Translations under genes and position numbers: made by a program
From: a virus
Taxonomy: Duplodnaviria > Heunggongvirae > Uroviricota > Caudoviricetes
DNA length: 64,000 nucleotides
Reading direction: 5' to 3' (one strand)
IMG/VR virus record: IMGVR_UViG_2974716081_000001
Shown here: positions 2,078-30,668 of the stretch, in pieces
How positions within the stretch are numbered: position 1 is the first letter of the stretch
Layout of the letters: every line of letters begins with the position of its first letter
The notes under the pieces: model-generated
What the model was told of the DNA's origin: nothing
Databases searched by the model: none
What the model saw: the letters and a program-made list of their open reading frames with translations, nothing else

Positions 2078-2728
2078 ATGAAAACAATCGAACAAAAAAT
2101 TGAACAGTGCCGCAAGTGGCAGAAGGCAGCCAGAGAACGAGCGATCGCTCGGCAACGGGAGAAGTTGGCTGATCCGGCCTGGCGAGAATCTCAATATCAG
2201 AAAATGCGGAATACTATCGATCGCCGTATCGCTAAACAGAAAGAGCGCCCACCAGCCAGCAAAACGCGGAAAAGCGCGGTAAAAATAAAATCTCGTGACT
2301 TGAAGGGACGAACACCGACGGCGGAGGAACGGCGCATAGCCAATGCTCTTGGCGCTCTCCCCTGCATTGCCTGCTATATGCATGGAGTAATATCTGAAGA
2401 GGTGTCTCTGCACCATATCTCCGGTCGTACCGCGCCTGGTTGTCACAAAAAGCAATTGCCACTTTGTAGATGGCACCACCAGCATGCAGCACCGGCTGAA
2501 GTAAGAGAAAAATACCCCTGGCTGGTCCCTGTTCATGCCGATGGTGTGGTTGGAGGCAAGAAAGAATTCACCTTGCTGAACAAGTCAGAGATGGAGTTGC
2601 TGGCTGACGCCTATGAAAGGGGTCTGACGCTCAGTGGAACGAAAACTCACGTTAAGCAACGTTTTCTGCCTCTGACGCCTCTTTTAATGGTCTCAGATGT
2701 CCTTTGGTCACCAGTTCTGCCAGCGTGA
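2078..2728 (+). CDS. ref: Ref HNH endonuclease (recombination enhancement), last 6 codons replaced by a 37-aa read-through into the transposon inverted repeat
   Basis: Basic disordered N-terminus and HNH motif (CHKKQLPLCRWHHQH); removing the transposon restores an ORF of exactly 186 aa ending ...LLADAYEMANIMH. Confidence 0.85.
   Translation: MKTIEQKIEQCRKWQKAARERAIARQREKLADPAWRESQYQKMRNTIDRRIAKQKERPPASKTRKSAVKIKSRDLKGRTPTAEERRIANALGALPCIACYMHGVISEEVSLHHISGRTAPGCHKKQLPLCRWHHQHAAPAEVREKYPWLVPVHADGVVGGKKEFTLLNKSEMELLADAYERGLTLSGTKTHVKQRFLPLTPLLMVSDVLWSPVLPA
2614..2618. repeat. target-site duplication TGAAA (left copy)
   Basis: the same 5 bp directly flank both transposon inverted repeats. Confidence 0.8.
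2619..2656. repeat. Tn3-family left 38-bp terminal inverted repeat
   Basis: exact match to the canonical Tn3 inverted repeat. Confidence 0.9.
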
Positions 2729-5657
2729 AGGAATAATGGCCGAGCATATTGATATGTCCGTGGCAAAGCGGGGAGAGGCGTGCGATATCTTCATCATTCA
2801 GTGTTTCACCCTGCGCCCGGAGATGATCCAGGGCTGCCTGCATATAAATAGTGTTCCATAACACGACGGCGTTAGTGACCAGCCCCAGTGTGCCCAGTTG
2901 ATCTTCCTGACCGTCGGTATATCGTTTTCTTATCTCACCTTTTTGACCGTGACAGATGGCTCTGGCAACGGCATGGCGACTTTCTCCCCGATTAAGCTGG
3001 GTCAGAATGCGCCGGCGGTAATCTTCATCATCAATATAATTAAGCAGATACAGCGTTTTGTTGATGCGCCCCACTTCAATGATTGCCTGAGTCAGTCCGG
3101 AAGGACGTTCACTTTTCAGCAATGAACGGACCAGCACTGAAACCTGTACTTTGCCCAGCTTCAGGGAGCCAGCGGTCCGGATCATTTCGTCCCACTGAAG
3201 GACTATTTTTCGGGGATCTGATTGCCCTCTGGCAATATCATTCAGCACGCCATAGTCGGCATCATGGTCCATTCGCCAGAAAACCGAAGCACCGGCATCA
3301 GCCAGGCGTGGAGAAAACTGGTATCCCAGCAGCCAGAAAAGGCCAAAGACAAGTTCGCTGGCACCTGCTGTATCGGTCATAATTTCGGTTGGATTCAGCC
3401 CGGTCTCCTGTTCCAGAAGACCTTCCAGCACAAAGATAGAGTCCCTCAGCGTCCCCGGTATAACGATGCCATGAAAGCCGGAATACTGATCGGACACAAA
3501 GTTGTACCAGGTGATCCCTCTGTTATTACCAAAGTATTTGCGGTTCGGTCCGGCATTGATTGTTCTGACTGGCGTAACAAAGCGCATTCCATCTGCAGAT
3601 GCCACTTCTCCTCCACCCCATATCTGTGCCAGTGGCAGCGTTGCCTGAAAATCAACCAGTCTGGCATTAGCGCTGGTGATAGTTTCAGCCCGCAGATAGT
3701 TCGCTTTTGTCCAGTTCAGCCGGTGTCGGGTCAGTGCAGGAACATTTGATCTGATCAGTGGTTCCAGACCGATATTGCAGGCTTCAGCCATCAGCACGGC
3801 GCTGATGCTGACGGGCAGATCATCAACTCTGGCACTGGCTTCACTAGCATGGAAAAACTCATCAGCAAATCCGGTATGGGCGTTAATTTCGAGCAGCAAC
3901 TCCGTTAAATCCACCGGAGGGAGTAGATCACTGATCATTTTGCTCAGTCGTTTCAGACTGTCCGGCTCATCAAGACTGGCGAGGGGAGAAATTGTCAACC
4001 GGGGCTTCGGGCCAGAAACATCGAGTTCGACAGCCTCATTTTCGCAAAGACGTGCAGCAACCTGTCTGTAACGACTATCAAGCTGATGACCCAGAGATTT
4101 TATTGCTTCCTGCGGGTCTGTCGGGTGCCCCAAAGAACGATAAACCTTAATCCGGTTTGCCTGCCAGTCAGCACCCTGTAGTAATCTTGCACGAGGATCT
4201 CCCCACCGGTTACTGCCGGTAACGTAGACATCCCTCCGCCTCAGACTATCCTGCAGTTTACTGAGAAAGCAGAGCGTGTATCCCCTGCGGGTGATATGTT
4301 TTTCCTTGTTAATCACCAGCCGTTTCCATGACCGACTGATAATTTCCGTTGGTGCGTCGTCAAAAAACTGCCGCCGTGAGCTGAACTCCCGGCTGAGGTA
4401 GTCACAGGCATTCAGAGTGGTAACCCCGGCAGGTGCGGATGAAAATTTAACGGTATTCAGCAGATGGGGCAGGAAACGACGAACGCGCCCGTACTGCTCC
4501 ACCATTTCTTCATGAAAATTATCGTCTGAGGGCCGGGCAATTTCACGGACAAGCGTGATGATTTCAGCCAGCTTTTGCCTTGGGATGTAGCTGAACACCT
4601 CAGCACGAATCGATTCGTCCGGTGTTTCTTCTTTCAGCAGGTACGAACATGCGCTGGCGAGCGCCAATGCAGATTTATCCAGATCCTTCAGCGAGCGGAG
4701 CCGTTTTTTCTGCCCAATCTTTCTGGCGTCACGGATGATAACGGCCAGCATGGCGTCCAGAACGTCCAATGCATCATCCAGCGCCAGCGTTTCCCATGCA
4801 AGGACAAAGGCAACCAGAACCGCCATCCTTTTCTGCGGTGACATCCTGGCAATATTGAACACCGAAGTCATACCAGCATAACGTGCGAGATTTTTCAGGC
4901 GCACAGCCGGGAGTGTACTCAGGTTTTCAGCATGCAGGCCAAAATCGTTCAGAGTTTTCCAGCGTTCAATTGCTTCATTAAACGCCGGACCACTGATGGT
5001 CACAGGGCCCTTTTTCAGTGATTCCAGTAAAGACAGGCGGCTGCAATCAGTTGGCCCCAGCAGCATCTCCAGCTGTGAACGCTGTTCGGCTGACGGTATC
5101 AGTGCCAGTTTGTTCCACAGGCGCAACGTCGCCTTTTCCCTTACCTCTGAAATCAACCGGGTCAGCGTAGTGGCTCCGGGGAGAATAATACGATGTTGCA
5201 TAAGCCACCCTGTCGCCAGATCGAAAAGCAGGCCAGGACGTTCGTTGCTTATCCAGCTCCGGGTATATAAAAGACGGGTAAGGCGAAATGTCCAGGGCCA
5301 GGCAAATTCACGATACTGATAGTGCTGACGTATCAGCGCTGCATGCTCACGGCGGGTATTTTCCCTCTGACCGTATTCTGCAAGAACGGTGATATCACGA
5401 ATCCCGAGCTGTCTGGCGGTAAAATGCCGGACGCCGGAAGGAATATGATTCATATCGGTGAGGAAGGTGCCCAGAAAACGGACACATCCAATTTGCAGGG
5501 CAATGCCCAGACGGTTGTGATCACCTCTGCTTTTTCCGATAAATTCCTTGTCTGCTTCATCAAGGTGAAAATATCGTGCCAGCTGAAGCTCATCCGGTTC
5601 ACCGGTGAATCTGCCATAGCTTTCAGTCTGCTCAGTGGTCAGAAAGTCAACGGGCAT
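2652..5657 (-). CDS. tnpA: Tn3-family transposase TnpA (1001 aa)
   Basis: ORF contains MPVDFLTTEQTESYGRFTGEPDELQLARYFHLDEADKEFIG...; start set at the MPVDFLT methionine rather than the extended track start. Confidence 0.95.
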   Translation of the reverse strand: MPVDFLTTEQTESYGRFTGEPDELQLARYFHLDEADKEFIGKSRGDHNRLGIALQIGCVRFLGTFLTDMNHIPSGVRHFTARQLGIRDITVLAEYGQRENTRREHAALIRQHYQYREFAWPWTFRLTRLLYTRSWISNERPGLLFDLATGWLMQHRIILPGATTLTRLISEVREKATLRLWNKLALIPSAEQRSQLEMLLGPTDCSRLSLLESLKKGPVTISGPAFNEAIERWKTLNDFGLHAENLSTLPAVRLKNLARYAGMTSVFNIARMSPQKRMAVLVAFVLAWETLALDDALDVLDAMLAVIIRDARKIGQKKRLRSLKDLDKSALALASACSYLLKEETPDESIRAEVFSYIPRQKLAEIITLVREIARPSDDNFHEEMVEQYGRVRRFLPHLLNTVKFSSAPAGVTTLNACDYLSREFSSRRQFFDDAPTEIISRSWKRLVINKEKHITRRGYTLCFLSKLQDSLRRRDVYVTGSNRWGDPRARLLQGADWQANRIKVYRSLGHPTDPQEAIKSLGHQLDSRYRQVAARLCENEAVELDVSGPKPRLTISPLASLDEPDSLKRLSKMISDLLPPVDLTELLLEINAHTGFADEFFHASEASARVDDLPVSISAVLMAEACNIGLEPLIRSNVPALTRHRLNWTKANYLRAETITSANARLVDFQATLPLAQIWGGGEVASADGMRFVTPVRTINAGPNRKYFGNNRGITWYNFVSDQYSGFHGIVIPGTLRDSIFVLEGLLEQETGLNPTEIMTDTAGASELVFGLFWLLGYQFSPRLADAGASVFWRMDHDADYGVLNDIARGQSDPRKIVLQWDEMIRTAGSLKLGKVQVSVLVRSLLKSERPSGLTQAIIEVGRINKTLYLLNYIDDEDYRRRILTQLNRGESRHAVARAICHGQKGEIRKRYTDGQEDQLGTLGLVTNAVVLWNTIYMQAALDHLRAQGETLNDEDIARLSPLCHGHINMLGHYSFTLAELVTKGHLRPLKEASEAENVA

Positions 5658-24639: not shown

Positions 24640-24771
24640 AAAGACCTCATAAGCGAATTTTTTACGCTCCAGGACAAACACCCATTCACAGCCAATACCG
24701 ACTGACTCGATCCCTTTAGAAGACACAGGATAATGCAAATCACTTGTTAGCTACGTTTCAAAGATATACAT

Positions 24772-24788
24772 TATTGCTCTAATTAATT
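24772..24788 (+). promoter_or_regulatory. C1 operator upstream of ssb
   Basis: ATTGCTCTAATTAATTT, 15/17 match to consensus, 20 bp upstream of ssb. Confidence 0.55.
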
Positions 24789-24808
24789 TATTTTATTGGG
24801 TAAGAAAA

Positions 24809-25297
24809 GTGGCACAACGCGGTGTAAACAAAGTCATCCTGATTGGTACCCTGGGGCAAGACCCGGAGATCAGGTATATACCAAATGGCGGAACGGTCGG
24901 AAGACTAAGCATCGCAACAAATGAATCATGGCGCGACAAGCAAACGGGCCAACAGAAAGAGCAAACAGAATGGCATAGAGTCGTTTTGTTCGGGAAACTT
25001 GCTGAAATTGCGAGTGAGTATTTACGAAAAGGTTCTCAGGTCTACATCGAAGGGAAACTTAAAACCCGTAAGTGGACAGATGACGCCGGTGTAGAACGTT
25101 ACACGACGGAAATTATCGTCAGCCAGGGCGGCACCATGCAAATGATCGGCGCTCGCCGCGACGATTCACAATTCTCAAATGGCTGGGGGCAGTCAAACCA
25201 ACCTCAAAACCACCAGCAATACAGCGGTGGCAGTAAACCTCAGAGCAACGCCAATAGCGAACCTCCAATGGACTTTGAAGACGATATTCCATTTTGA
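24809..25297 (+). CDS. ssb: single-stranded DNA-binding protein
   Basis: 162 aa, OB-fold N-terminus, Gly/Gln-rich linker and acidic C-terminal tail DFEDDIPF typical of SSB. Confidence 0.95.
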
Positions 25298-25349
25298 GAG
25301 GGCTGAAAGTTGCTCGATTACTTAAAAATAACTTTACCTAATTGGTGTA

Positions 25350-25374
25350 AAAAAATGGGCGCAACAAAGCGCCC
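25350..25374 (-). terminator. intrinsic terminator for the leftward porin transcript
   Basis: GGGCGC-aacaaa-GCGCCC stem with a 7-nt A-run on the top strand (U-run on the porin transcript). Confidence 0.45.
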
Positions 25375-25530
25375 CAACAATAGAGTTTCAAATTAATAAA
25401 AAGGTAATAAATAACATGAAGTTAAATTGAGAAGAGGCAATTTTATTGCCTCTTCAAAGGTGGCATGAGGGTGCCACCTATATGCGGGCAGTGACATCAC
25501 TCCCTTCCCGCATATTCTTACCTACCAAAA

Positions 25531-26646
25531 TTAGAATTGGTAGGTCATACCAACAGCAACGATGTTGTCGGTTGCAACCTCAGATGTTTTGGTAAATTCA
25601 CTTTCATCAATCAGGTTGATCTTGTAGTCAACGAAAGCGGACATATTTTTGTTAAAGTAATAAGTCGCGCCCACGTCGATGTATTCAACCAGATCCTGGT
25701 TACCGAACGCACCAATATTTTCACCGCGAGAGTGTAGGTAAGCGATGGACGGACGCAGGCCGAAATCAAACTGGTATTGAGCAACGGCTTCAAAGTTTTT
25801 CGCCTTGTTCGCGATATGGTCATCACCGAAGACTGTCATATTCTGAGTTTCAGAATAAGTTGTAGCCAGGTAAATGTTGTTTGCATCATATTTCAGGCCC
25901 GTAGCCCATACTTCAGCAGTTTTACCAGAGGCATTCAGATTCAGAGGGGCTTTAGCATAGGATACCTGTCCATCAGTACGGTCAGATTTTGCATAAGTTG
26001 CGCCAATGCCAAATCCTTCATAATCATAAGTAGCTGACAGACCGAAGCCATCACCATTAGATTCAACTACGTCGCGGCCTTTCCAGTTGTTCACTTTTGC
26101 AGCACTATCATTTTTACCCTGATACTGCAAAGCAAAGTTCAGACCATCAACCAAGCCGAAGAAATCATTGTTACGATAGGTCGCGACGCCAGTAGCACGC
26201 TGGGTCATAAATACATCAGTCTGAGTCCAGGTATCTCCACCAAACTCCGGCAGCACGTCAGTCCAAGCGCCAACATCATACGCTACACCGTAGTTGCGAC
26301 CATAGTCGAGCGAACCATAATCGCCAAAGCGAAGCCCTGCAAACGCAAGACGAGTTTTATCTTTATCAGAACCTTCAGTTTCAGTACGGTTACCTTTAAA
26401 TTCGTACTCCCACTGACCAAAACCGGTTAACTGGTCATTAATCTGAGTTTCACCTTTGAAACCCATACGAGCATAAGTTTTATCCCCGTCATCACTAGCT
26501 GAAGAAGAGAAGTAATGCTCTGCATTAACTTTGCCGTACAGATCCAGTTTGTTACCGTCTTTGTTATAGATTTCTGCCGCTTGTGCAGACATTGCCATCA
26601 GGACTGATGCTGCAACCGCAGAAAGTGCCACTGTGATTTTTTTCAT
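25531..26646 (-). CDS. OmpC/OmpF-family general porin with signal peptide (phage-borne cargo)
   Basis: 371 aa; signal peptide [23 protein letters not shown]; motifs [44 protein letters not shown]-terminal YQF shared with enterobacterial porins. Confidence 0.85.
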
Positions 26647-26757
26647 TTTTTTGCCCTTTAGATTGAACTTTTCAGTAGAAAAGAGGTCACTGCGGACAAA
26701 TGTTTATCTTTTTTGGATTCGTGTTTCAAGTTTTGCAAATAAAAATCAAGGTATTTT

Positions 26758-26773
26758 TGTGATCAAAATCACA
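26758..26773. promoter_or_regulatory. CRP-type palindrome TGTGA-N6-TCACA about 110 bp upstream of the porin start
   Basis: perfect TGTGATCAAAATCACA inside a larger palindrome CAAGGT...ACCTTG (26748-26787). Confidence 0.4.
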
Positions 26774-27385
26774 AATAATAACCTTGAAAACCCAATGGAC
26801 TATTAGAAAAATCTCAATTCACAGAATAAAAATTGACAAAATAGAACAAAACACAATCAACAATAAGCACAAAAGACAAACAATTAAATTAGCACAAAAA
26901 TAATAACTGCAAAAATAGATAGTCTGTTAATTAATAGGGTTTTAATGGATGTGGATTTGAAATCTACTTAAAAAGTAGAGTCAAATTAATTACTGTCGAT
27001 TGGGTATTAAACTGAATCTATATTGTGAGAGTTAAAGACGATGTGTTTTAGTTATACATGTTATTCCCTAAAATGGAGTAGTCTCATCGAATTCTGATTA
27101 ATAACGAGCTAAGCCAATTCATTTTAGTATGTGTATATCTTTACCCTCTGAATATGCAATGACGAAGAGATATTAAACAATATGTAGCTTCAGGATTGAC
27201 TCTGGAAGAATTAAAAGATCGGCTAAAGTGTTCAATATGTGGTGAGCGAAACGCAAAAATTAAAATTTTTTGATCTAACATATTAGGCAATAGCTTGCTT
27301 CCATAACCTAAAGCAAGCCACTACGCGTTTACTTTAAGTACACAATTAACATATCAGAACAGATTATTTGTGCACTATCAGGGAG

Positions 27386-27691
27386 TTAATATACGATCTG
27401 GTCTACATGATCCCCAAAATCATCGTCGTCCTCATCGCCACCCTCTACTGCTGGCCAATCGACAAACCAGCCAGCGTAAAGATGCAGCGTTCGGAGAACA
27501 TCACTTGCGGGAGCATCAAGGGTGTTAACGAATCCCATATAGCTATTGGGATTTGCCCCAGCTATGGCTTCAGCGATCATGTCCTCGGTAATGTCACCGG
27601 AGATAATGCTTAAACGCCCGGAAACTTCTTCATTATCATCAAATTCGATAATGGCATCTCCGCCTAATGGCGCTGCGATTTTAATCTGCAT
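27386..27691 (-). CDS. acidic 101-aa protein downstream of ddrB (hypothetical)
   Basis: start overlaps the upstream stop; C-terminal EGGDEDDDDFGD acidic patch. Confidence 0.45.
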   Translation of the reverse strand: MQIKIAAPLGGDAIIEFDDNEEVSGRLSIISGDITEDMIAEAIAGANPNSYMGFVNTLDAPASDVLRTLHLYAGWFVDWPAVEGGDEDDDDFGDHVDQIVY

Positions 27692-30668
27692 TATTTAGCT
27701 CCTTTGCCACACCTAATAACAGTTCCAGCAATCCGTCACCATTCATCAGTGATGCGGCAGCGGCCTCTTTGTCATGATACAACTGAAGAGCCATAGAGAA
27801 TACTTCCGTTGCTGATGTTTTTGAAATAGTCGGTGCTTTCTGCCGAATTTTCCCGGAGTTACTCACTGAGGCTGGCGGGTATACCTTCGCCATATAAATA
27901 TTACTCAATCGAGATCTGAAGCACCATTCAGGCTTGCCACGCCCACCGATATTAACGAAAGATGGCTTATCCCCTTCAACATTGGCCTTCAGGAATGACC
28001 GGGCTTTCTCTAACAAACCAGGGTTACTGTACTCAAGATGATGACCCAGCTCGTGCCACAGTGCACTTGCATTTTCATCGTTCAAATTGACAGCAACAAC
28101 ACCATTAAGATTTGCATATGCCCTTCCCTGGTGGTGAACCACCTTTGATAAGGTCGAAATTTTACCGCCGGTCAGGCGATAAATATCAGCAAGTTCCTTG
28201 CGCAGGTCTATCCCACCATTCTGTCCAGCGCGGGCTTCTTCCACTTCTTCCGTGATAAAAGAGTCGGCCCACTCAAGAGCTTTTTCTTCAGATACGGATG
28301 AGTTTGCGATCGCACTGTTCATGGCAGATAACACTTTCTCGTGGACCGAACCCATACTTCGCTGATTCATTTGCCAGCGTGTCTGCGGGTTATATGAGAA
28401 TCGCTTAAGTAGTTGGTCAAGCTGCTCAAGTTCTTCTTCACTGACATACCTTTTAGCCTCACCAATAATGCCAGGGAGAATATTGCCGTTAGGATTAAAC
28501 GCTCGCGAAAGGAAGAGTTTCAGCGCCCCCATGCCCTCCGATGCTTCAATATCACCAATAACCCGGTTAACAATGGCCGCACTCTTCGGATTAGCATCCG
28601 CCAATGCTCTGGCTACAATTTGCAGGGACGATACGACCTCACGCTGCATATCCGTCCTGATCTCATCAATAAACTCTGGCGTTATGCCGTGCTCTTTAAG
28701 GATATCCCTGCCTTCCGCCGTTACCCCATCGATATCACCGACATGTTTATTAACCCGACTTTGCAATGCCTTAAATGCCTTCAGAATTCCACGGGCATCA
28801 TCCGCTTTACTAACGGCCTTCCTGAATGCTGGCAAGAAGTCTGAGTTAACCTCATTTTGTTGATCGGCCCACTGAATGGAGGCTTCTTTCATCTCGTCCA
28901 GAGTCAGATCACCCAACGCGGTATGGTCTGTGAATATGAGCGACAACCTCTGAACCATTTCTGCCAATGGTGATGCCGAATGCGCCGCGCTAAGGAATGC
29001 TTTCACCCTGGTTGGGCGAATGGAAAACCAGTCAATAGCTGGTGGCATATCTCCGTTTTTTATCGCCTGCGCTATCTCGTCAAAGCCATCGCGCCCAAGG
29101 GAGGATGCGTGATTTAACAAGCCGCGAAGTAACGAATTGCTGATACCGAATAATCGGCACCATTTTTTCACGTCGGCAACAGGCATTCGAACAAAATGCG
29201 CAAGCACTTGAACAAGCTGTTCATCCTGGGGATCTGTACGGGAAAGCAGCCTGATCAGATGAATAATGTCTTTGATGCCGGATGCCCGATGTAATAGCAA
29301 ACTGGTATATGGAGCAACACCGTTGTAACTACCGCCGGAAACGGACTCGAAAAGACCGCCGGATATCCCTTGCATGCCTTCGTTTTCCAGTTCCTGAGAC
29401 ACCTGGCGAAGGATATCCTGTAACGACACATCACCACCGCCAAACATATCCCCCAGCGCCTGGCACTGGTGCTGTAACTCATCATTGATACGTTGAGCCA
29501 TCAATTTAAAGGCGGTGGCCATACGCTTCGCGCTACGGTTATTCGCGACGATGAATAACGCGAGAGCTTTCACTTCCGGGGCTGTTTCGCTGAACATATC
29601 CCCCTGAGCAATAACATCGGTAATATGTTGGCCTGACTCCTTCGATTGCCTTACCAGGTCTACCGCATCTTTCAATGCCGCCAGCGCCTTTTTATCGAGA
29701 CTATCCGCTGTCTCAATACCATCAACAATAGTTGTCACAGCCTGCTTGTGCGCTTCACCTGATAAAGCCTGCATCTGGACAAAATCATTGGCTGCCGCAT
29801 TAAGCGCCGTCAGAACATTACGCATATCTGGATCAGGTTCTTCTGCAACCATCCTTACCAGGCGCGCATCCTTATATGCCTTGGCAAAGATCGCGTTTTG
29901 TATACGGTCTACAAGTTGCCGTGTTGGTCGCCCATCTTTCGTTACAAGGCCAGCAGCCTGTGTGGCACCAACTTGCGTCATGAATCCGCGGATAAACGCG
30001 TCATTACTGCGGCTAAGCAGATCTCCGCTTTCTGACGGGTTAAACAGCGCCATCATCGCCGAAGTTATGTTGTCGGCATCAACAAAAGCCTTTTCACTGG
30101 CTGCCATTTCCTGAAGATCAGAAATATTTGAGTCCTTGGCAAACTGAACGCGGTCAACCTTAGTTAACCGGCGGCGCACCAGTACCGGAGCCGCCATTGA
30201 TTCAACCTTTTCAGGTCGTATGCCGAATTCGGTCGCATGATCAATCAGGTACTCACGATACCGATCCGCATTGCCGTCCTGATAGGCTTTGATGATCCCC
30301 ATGGTCCGTCCATTACCTGACTCAACGGCATTGTCCTCACCAATTATCGGCGCTCCATGGCTGGATAAACCGGAATCGGTAAGCTGAGCAGGCCGCAAAT
30401 CCTTGGATATCTGGTTAACCTGAAGAAGGCTGGATGCGCGGGTCCGGTCGCGCGGCTGAAGTTCCTGGGGATAGTCCGGATTAATTTTCCCGTCCAGAGT
30501 ATTGGATACCAAAAGAGCTGAGGCATCGACGATATCAAACGCTGTTTTTACCTCGTCTCCCTTCGCTGTCACCACATACGAAACCCGCCCGAAATCGGGC
30601 AGGTTTTTTAGCAGCTCGATCAGCGTTTCTATGCTGGTGGCCATTACCACCTGATCGCTTAAGCTCAT
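27681..30668 (-). CDS. ddrB: DdrB-like 995-aa protein of the darA operon
   Basis: large ORF third in line after darA and ddrA on the same strand; assigned by operon position. Confidence 0.7.
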   Translation of the reverse strand: MSLSDQVVMATSIETLIELLKNLPDFGRVSYVVTAKGDEVKTAFDIVDASALLVSNTLDGKINPDYPQELQPRDRTRASSLLQVNQISKDLRPAQLTDSGLSSHGAPIIGEDNAVESGNGRTMGIIKAYQDGNADRYREYLIDHATEFGIRPEKVESMAAPVLVRRRLTKVDRVQFAKDSNISDLQEMAASEKAFVDADNITSAMMALFNPSESGDLLSRSNDAFIRGFMTQVGATQAAGLVTKDGRPTRQLVDRIQNAIFAKAYKDARLVRMVAEEPDPDMRNVLTALNAAANDFVQMQALSGEAHKQAVTTIVDGIETADSLDKKALAALKDAVDLVRQSKESGQHITDVIAQGDMFSETAPEVKALALFIVANNRSAKRMATAFKLMAQRINDELQHQCQALGDMFGGGDVSLQDILRQVSQELENEGMQGISGGLFESVSGGSYNGVAPYTSLLLHRASGIKDIIHLIRLLSRTDPQDEQLVQVLAHFVRMPVADVKKWCRLFGISNSLLRGLLNHASSLGRDGFDEIAQAIKNGDMPPAIDWFSIRPTRVKAFLSAAHSASPLAEMVQRLSLIFTDHTALGDLTLDEMKEASIQWADQQNEVNSDFLPAFRKAVSKADDARGILKAFKALQSRVNKHVGDIDGVTAEGRDILKEHGITPEFIDEIRTDMQREVVSSLQIVARALADANPKSAAIVNRVIGDIEASEGMGALKLFLSRAFNPNGNILPGIIGEAKRYVSEEELEQLDQLLKRFSYNPQTRWQMNQRSMGSVHEKVLSAMNSAIANSSVSEEKALEWADSFITEEVEEARAGQNGGIDLRKELADIYRLTGGKISTLSKVVHHQGRAYANLNGVVAVNLNDENASALWHELGHHLEYSNPGLLEKARSFLKANVEGDKPSFVNIGGRGKPEWCFRSRLSNIYMAKVYPPASVSNSGKIRQKAPTISKTSATEVFSMALQLYHDKEAAAASLMNGDGLLELLLGVAKELNNAD

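Follow-up and report, generated by a model that had tools for sequence, protein, structure and literature searches.

The DNA described here has its closest known counterparts in the ssb-hxr locus of P1-like phage-plasmids. In P1 the gene order is ssb - isaA - IS1 - PisaB - isaB - hxr (convergent) - ddrB, and isaB, the 'IS1-associated gene B' (P1_gp020, YP_006489.1, 23527-24132), is annotated as a 201-aa product of 'unknown protein function'; by CRISPRi, it is non-essential for plaque formation by P1 (PMC10695390). In the accessible text of Venturini et al. 2019 (PMC6906374) and of the JL22 paper (PMC9603915), isaA-IS1-isaB is recognised as a region of P1-like plasmids that varies and is low in GC, and the same ssb-hxr locus, with its low GC and its alternative cargo, is described by gene content under the names RD-2 and 'region 2'; the former text also mentions a 'P7 porin precursor gene nmpC', which in pSvP1 is disrupted by IS10. 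Phage JL22 carries the same porin and the same truncated isaB as the sequence studied here. Our analysis resolves the structure of this locus beyond gene content, with a porin in the isaA slot, a 32-bp spacer, a deletion of ~607 bp and intermediates in which isaB is intact. The short open frame that lies at its centre is, with a probability of about 0.92, a non-functional 3' pseudogene stub of the P1-family isaB, and as such an ordinary pseudogene in an already known variable region.

The window, by which we mean the whole 64,000-nt stretch analysed (IMG/VR record IMGVR_UViG_2974716081_000001), contains the following features in this region:

25531-26646, minus strand: porin gene (Porin_1, E 3e-148), in the slot held by isaA in pMB3362_2 and P1
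26647-27130, no strand assigned: AT-rich (28% GC) region upstream of the porin, collinear with the porin in the loci L004, L011 and L012
27131-27162, no strand assigned: P1 backbone spacer of 32 bp (isaA-isaB intergenic), holding an empty IS1 target
27163-27164, no strand assigned: deletion junction, CG here and AG in the JL22 allele, in place of ~607-609 bp
27163-27273, plus strand: isaB 3' remnant, made up of the junction codon CGA, codons 167-201 and the stop TGA at 27271-27273
27287-27324, no strand assigned: conserved hairpin with a 15-bp stem, between the isaB stop and the hxr stop
27386-27691, minus strand: hxr, convergent with the remnant and last gene of the darA/ddrB operon

The fragment is the 3' end of P1 isaB. 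A tblastn search with P1 IsaB against the whole window gave a single match, in which residues 166-201 correspond to 27163-27270 (E 3.4e-16), with 31 of 36 amino acids identical (86%) and ~93% identity to isaB at the DNA level; by the same search, no other part of IsaB, nor IsaA, is encoded anywhere in the window. The 36-aa peptide also matches phrog_30162 (PHROG 30162), at profile positions 166-201 of 201 (E 2.3e-17). Both matches are much stronger than chance would give. When 26640-27400 was compared with phage records by megablast, the match to P1 (NC_005856, AF234172/3, AJ000741) began at query base 526, which is window position 27165, and covered the features 'isaB' and 'hxr'; from there the DNA homology to P1 continues through the hairpin, hxr and ddrB. 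The suspicion raised by the sequence-only reading, that this was the tail of a decayed gene, was therefore borne out by both megablast and tblastn. The surroundings agree with this identity: the remnant lies downstream of the cassette on the ssb side and is convergent with hxr, and the same hairpin stands between the two. In P1, 111 bp separate the end of isaB from the convergent hxr, with an annotated terminator in between, and the window is arranged alike. The C-terminus of P1 IsaB reads SQRDIKKYVASGLTLEDLKNRLKCSICGERNAKIKVF, and the motif LKCSICGERNAKIK(V/I)F is common to both. The differences are as clear as the likeness. The remnant keeps 36 of the 201 codons, it lacks PisaB, the ribosome-binding site, the start codon and the N-terminal alpha/beta domain, and the IS1 found beside the P1 gene is absent, its target being empty. 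A full-length IsaB (~195-230 aa, with the motifs DLNGSGTQG, LYEADL and KDYEP) is represented in the entire window by residues 166-201 only, and on these comparisons the remnant is a gene fragment rather than a member of the IsaB family at the protein level.

The open frame at 27163-27270 (plus strand) comprises 36 codons and reads RRDIKQYVASGLTLEELKDRLKCSICGERNAKIKIF. Translation of 27100-27276 on the same strand gives NNELSQFILVCVYLYPLNMQ, a stop, RRDIKQYVASGLTLEELKDRLKCSICGERNAKIKIF, a second stop and S, with NMQ preceding the first stop: an in-frame TGA at 27160-27162, itself preceded by ATG-CAA at 27154-27159, closes the frame upstream. The CxxC motif of the remnant is CSIC, the C-terminal CxxC of the IsaB family. 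A frame bearing a CxxC in an AT-rich tract had been reported from the sequence, and it is indeed present: the GC content is 0.32 in the fragment and 0.28 in 26647-27130, compared with 0.47 in the whole window. The extent first given to it, 27120-27275, proved to be composite, since only 27163-27273 is gene fragment, while 27131-27162 is non-coding P1 backbone and everything to the left of ~27130 belongs to the porin module.

The boundaries of the deletion follow from comparison with P1 and with an intact relative. Positions 27144-27162 (CCCTCTGAATATGCAATGA) are identical, 19/19 in a short-word blastn, to the P1 sequence abutting the right end of IS1. In the P1 locus (L001), IS1 is flanked by a 9-bp duplication, TGCCCTCTG, at 1094-1102 and 1871-1879, and because of this duplication it is a simple insertion; the corresponding target in the window, TACCCTCTG at 27142-27150, is unoccupied. 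In pMB3362_2 the IS1 site is unoccupied as well. If IS1 is left out, the spacer of P1, GTGTAATTCTTTGCCCTCTGAATATGCAATGA/TGGTTAGACA, lines up with GTGTATATCTTTACCCTCTGAATATGCAATGA/CG/AAGAGAT of the window, where the spacer is followed by sequence that resumes at the third base of codon 166 in isaB. The DNA absent from the window corresponds to 1892-2500 of the P1 locus (609 bp) and to 2666-3272 of the locus from plasmid pHNBY4G-2 (L011; 607 bp), and includes the -35 and -10 boxes of PisaB, the ribosome-binding site, the ATG and isaB codons 1-165. In P1, PisaB is annotated at 1896-1924 and the isaB ATG at 2004, both inside the missing interval, and the -35 box starts 4 bp past the left breakpoint. 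The promoter and the start codon of isaB are thus deleted, and the fragment is instead preceded by the in-frame TGA. No obvious microhomology was seen at the junction. An IS1-mediated adjacent deletion was considered and set aside as unlikely, since the IS1 target is unoccupied and the deletion begins 20 bp past the point at which IS1 ends in P1. Among the 19 IMG/VR contigs recovered by a scan for the junction, the breakpoint is identical in all, which points to a single ancestral event.

The ssb-hxr locus exists in three states: (a) ssb - isaA - isaB - hxr without IS1, as in pMB3362_2 (L005), P1 being the same arrangement plus IS1; (b) ssb - porin - AT-rich region - spacer - isaB of intact length - hxr, found with the full 201-codon isaB in plasmids pHNBY4G-2 (L011) and pRHB31-C17_2 (L012), and also in RHB44-C01 unnamed2 (L004), where isaB is frameshifted; and (c) ssb - porin - AT-rich region - spacer - truncated isaB - hxr, to which the window, phage JL22, phi456 and ~100 PLSDB plasmids belong. 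Compared with the isaA-type locus L005, homology to the window ends at the end of ssb (25300) and restarts at 27131, and for this reason the porin module (~25300 to 27130) is the alternative to isaA, not to isaB. Compared with L011, the window is collinear on both sides of the deletion, at 24700-27162 (L011 199-2665, 94.9%) and at 27165-27800 (L011 3273-3910). Porin and truncated isaB form a single block in 101 of 123 PLSDB matches; the truncated form is also the commoner one, with only the tail of the gene present in ~90 of the 115 PLSDB plasmids that match a P1 isaB query. In L004, a porin-carrying E. fergusonii plasmid (NZ_CP099340.1), the full-length isaB at 4128-4735 has undergone an A8-to-A7 frameshift near codon 55, an inactivation that is independent of the 607-bp deletion. 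isaB has been lost at least twice independently, by deletion here and by frameshift in L004, and this repeated loss fits the non-essentiality of the gene in P1.

The close association between remnant and porin could be taken to mean that the porin was inserted and the rest of isaB removed in one step, and the porin-less P1-type relatives compared (P1 and pMB3362_2) do have an intact isaB. We nevertheless regard a single event as very improbable. The porin module ends at ~27130, the deletion junction lies at 27163-27164, and 32 bp of backbone with an intact IS1 target divide them, so that there are two separate junctions; L011 and L012 carry the same porin module and the same spacer beside a full-length isaB, which argues that the truncation was a separate deletion; and the porin takes the place of isaA, not of isaB. 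In principle, the plasmids that combine the porin with an intact isaB could have arisen by recombination and need not represent the ancestral state, but even then the two junctions stand because of the 32-bp spacer. The proposal that the fragment is a remnant of what the porin replaced consequently holds in part: it is backbone DNA of the isaA-IS1-isaB variable region, but the rest of isaB was not lost to the porin, whose module stops short of the junction and coexists with an intact isaB in L011 and L012.

A different reading would make the remnant a functional micro-protein, a CxxC peptide exapted from the C-terminus of IsaB, of 25 aa from the TTG at 27196 or of 36 aa from a non-canonical start. 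In its favour, the frame is open, the allele in the window retains the two Leu, the CxxC and the terminal F, and the tail-only form predominates among the PLSDB plasmids. However, the evidence makes such a peptide highly improbable. The remnant frame has no ATG or GTG; its sole start codon is the TTG at 27196, from which the list of open reading frames gives a single 25-aa ORF (27196-27273), and the AGGA at 27192-27195 abuts this TTG with zero spacing, leaving no usable Shine-Dalgarno spacing. PisaB is deleted, the frame is closed upstream by an in-frame stop in both alleles (TGA in the window, TAA in JL22), and a promoter scan of 26500-27500 found no site near the remnant and only one weak match, at 26784-26812, ~350 bp upstream, which is below the mean of 3.4 in shuffles; a dedicated promoter is thus unsupported. 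A Pfam search with the 36-aa peptide gave no match at E up to 1, and in an Rfam scan of 25300-27800 nothing overlapped the fragment, the only match being a sub-threshold one to GcvB near the 3' end of the porin gene. As for the small zinc-ribbon peptide that had been offered as an alternative to a decayed gene, this idea did not survive. A zinc ribbon requires four ligands on two knuckles (CxxC/CxxH ... CxxC). Like small proteins of this kind, the remnant has a CxxC followed by G and basic residues, but it has a single CxxC, no second knuckle and no translation signals, and its motif derives from the Cys cluster at the C-terminus of a larger protein. Because the deletion took the other Cys of the family, which precede residue 166, a peptide made from the remnant would be unable to form a four-ligand zinc site. 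The variation among copies also looks like neutral drift, in what is a uniform sample with two main alleles. Ten of the IMG/VR contigs end in ...KIKIF and match the window exactly for 253 nt from the junction, and nine (one of them partial) end in ...KINFF; the two alleles differ by one synonymous and two amino-acid changes, so that in JL22 two of the last three residues are altered. Two of the 19 copies are disrupted, one by an internal stop (GAAGAATTA to CAACAATAA) and one by a T8-to-T7 shift that removes the stop. With so few substitutions, that the 36-codon frame stays open in most copies is expected by chance. A more specific proposal, that translation of the IsaB tail starts at the TTG, whether or not read-through transcription from the region upstream of the porin contributes, and yields a 25-aa CxxC peptide with a function of its own, for example in interfering with the IsaB-type proteins of competing mobile elements, is barely credible; if true, it would explain the predominance of the truncated form among porin-carrying P1-like plasmids.

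The remnant might also have been kept for an action in cis, either as a convergent terminator or 3' end of the minus-strand hxr/ddrB/darA transcript, or as a spacer separating that terminator from the region upstream of the porin. The hairpin at 27287-27324 starts 14 bp downstream of the remnant stop, its core does not differ between P1, JL22 and the window, and it falls within the region annotated as 'terminator' in the record of the P1 darA operon (AJ000741). Moreover, 27255-27390 on the minus strand (136 nt, including this and a second hairpin) folds with -34.5 kcal/mol (z = -3.9), and the nearest and only U-rich run after the hairpin on that strand, AAAAAAUUUUAAUUUUU, lies inside the remnant at 27255-27271. 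Set against this, the annotated terminator is outside the isaB coding region, a generic terminator scan of 26500-27500 called no site, the hairpin included, and the U-run stands ~16 nt from the stem, which is atypical. A role in cis can be envisaged for no more than the last ~20 bp of the remnant and would leave the other 90 bp unexplained; on balance, we consider it unlikely. In two plasmids, NZ_CP070953.1 and NZ_OY754444.1, homology to the window stops at ~27305, inside the hairpin, which suggests another rearrangement breakpoint in the hotspot.

Under the reading that we prefer, a non-functional stub of isaB, the ancestral order would have been ssb - [isaA or porin cassette] - spacer - PisaB - isaB - hairpin - hxr. 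One deletion of ~607 bp, beginning 4 bp ahead of the -35 box of PisaB and extending as far as the third base of codon 166, took the promoter, the ribosome-binding site, the start codon and 165 of the 201 codons. It spared 35 codons at the 3' end with their stop, together with the hairpin by which the convergent hxr/ddrB/darA operon is closed. The identity with isaB, the limits of the deletion, its independence of the porin junction and the lack of a start codon or promoter are shown by the comparisons above, and nothing found speaks positively against this reading. We infer from these features that the remnant is not translated and has no role as a protein, and that it is both unexpressed and functionless, read-through transcription into it from the AT-rich region upstream of the porin being possible. 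Its persistence is probably due to its small size and to the recent date of the deletion relative to the two alleles, and perhaps also to the terminator hairpin that lies 14 bp downstream, into which a longer deletion would run.

The parent family was examined with a set of 56 proteins (P0001-P0056) and five loci (L006-L010). Homologues of IsaB at 46-62% identity to the P1-type protein occur in Serratia, Aeromonas, Novosphingobium, Paracoccus, Roseicella and others. In 26 IsaB homologues, the invariant columns of the tail are the two Leu and the CxxC, and two nearly invariant Cys (...RC.SGYFCRKP...) lie ~30-35 residues upstream of the tail CxxC, in the part deleted here. The C-terminal Cys cluster has the form Cx4-5C...CxxC, and the P1-type proteins lack its second Cys. 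Full-length IsaB received no Pfam, NCBI-style or PADLOC assignment (a MurT_C match at E 0.15 was dismissed as noise), and PADLOC run on IsaA, IsaB and Hxr gave no match to a defence system. The AlphaFold model of IsaB is confident and matched no fold in the PDB. Around the homologue P0013 lie genes for RPA, ParA, DUF2840, an S26 peptidase, SLT and a relaxase, a neighbourhood that looks like that of integrative conjugative elements; the IsaB family is common to P1-like phage-plasmids and to these apparent integrative conjugative elements of Alphaproteobacteria. A 314-aa DUF5677 protein encoded next to alphaproteobacterial IsaB homologues was considered as a relative of IsaA and rejected for want of any similarity, and this comparison gave no sign of a conserved isaA-isaB pair beyond P1-like elements.

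Several neighbouring annotations deserve comment. Hxr, a 101-aa acidic protein, is annotated in P1 as 'possible repressor; homolog of Xre'; a Pfam search at E up to 1 gave no helix-turn-helix match, and the protein matches only phrog_2292, 'unknown function', so the repressor label looks weakly founded. The sub-threshold match to GcvB (RF00022; 25349-25535, minus strand; E 4.5e-5 and 30.5 bits, below the gathering score of 42) lies directly 3' of the porin stop codon and contains an R2-like ACUUCAUGU stretch, a terminal GC hairpin and U7, but R1 is for the greater part missing. A weak 34-bp match at 82% identity suggests that the 3' half of the GcvB match (25349-25421) is P1 backbone, and P1 has ACTTCATGTAATTTATT and a hairpin on the same strand to the left of IS1; the 5' half is part of the porin module. 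Because the GcvB match spans the junction between backbone and porin module, it may be fortuitous. Finally, in the AT-rich tract upstream of the porin, JL22 annotates a 39-aa 'hypothetical protein gp17', equivalent to a TTG ORF at 26784-26903 (plus strand) of the window; it lies in DNA of 28% GC, starts inside the tract's only promoter-like consensus match and is probably a spurious call.

On its own the remnant is of little importance, and its identification tidies the annotation of a very common P1/P7-like class: in ~100 PLSDB records of P1/P7-like phage-plasmids, this stretch is better labelled as an isaB pseudogene remnant than left blank or called as a small ORF. The history of the ssb-hxr hotspot is also clarified, with porin and isaA as alternative cassettes, and IsaB, an uncharacterised protein of mobile elements, may deserve study.
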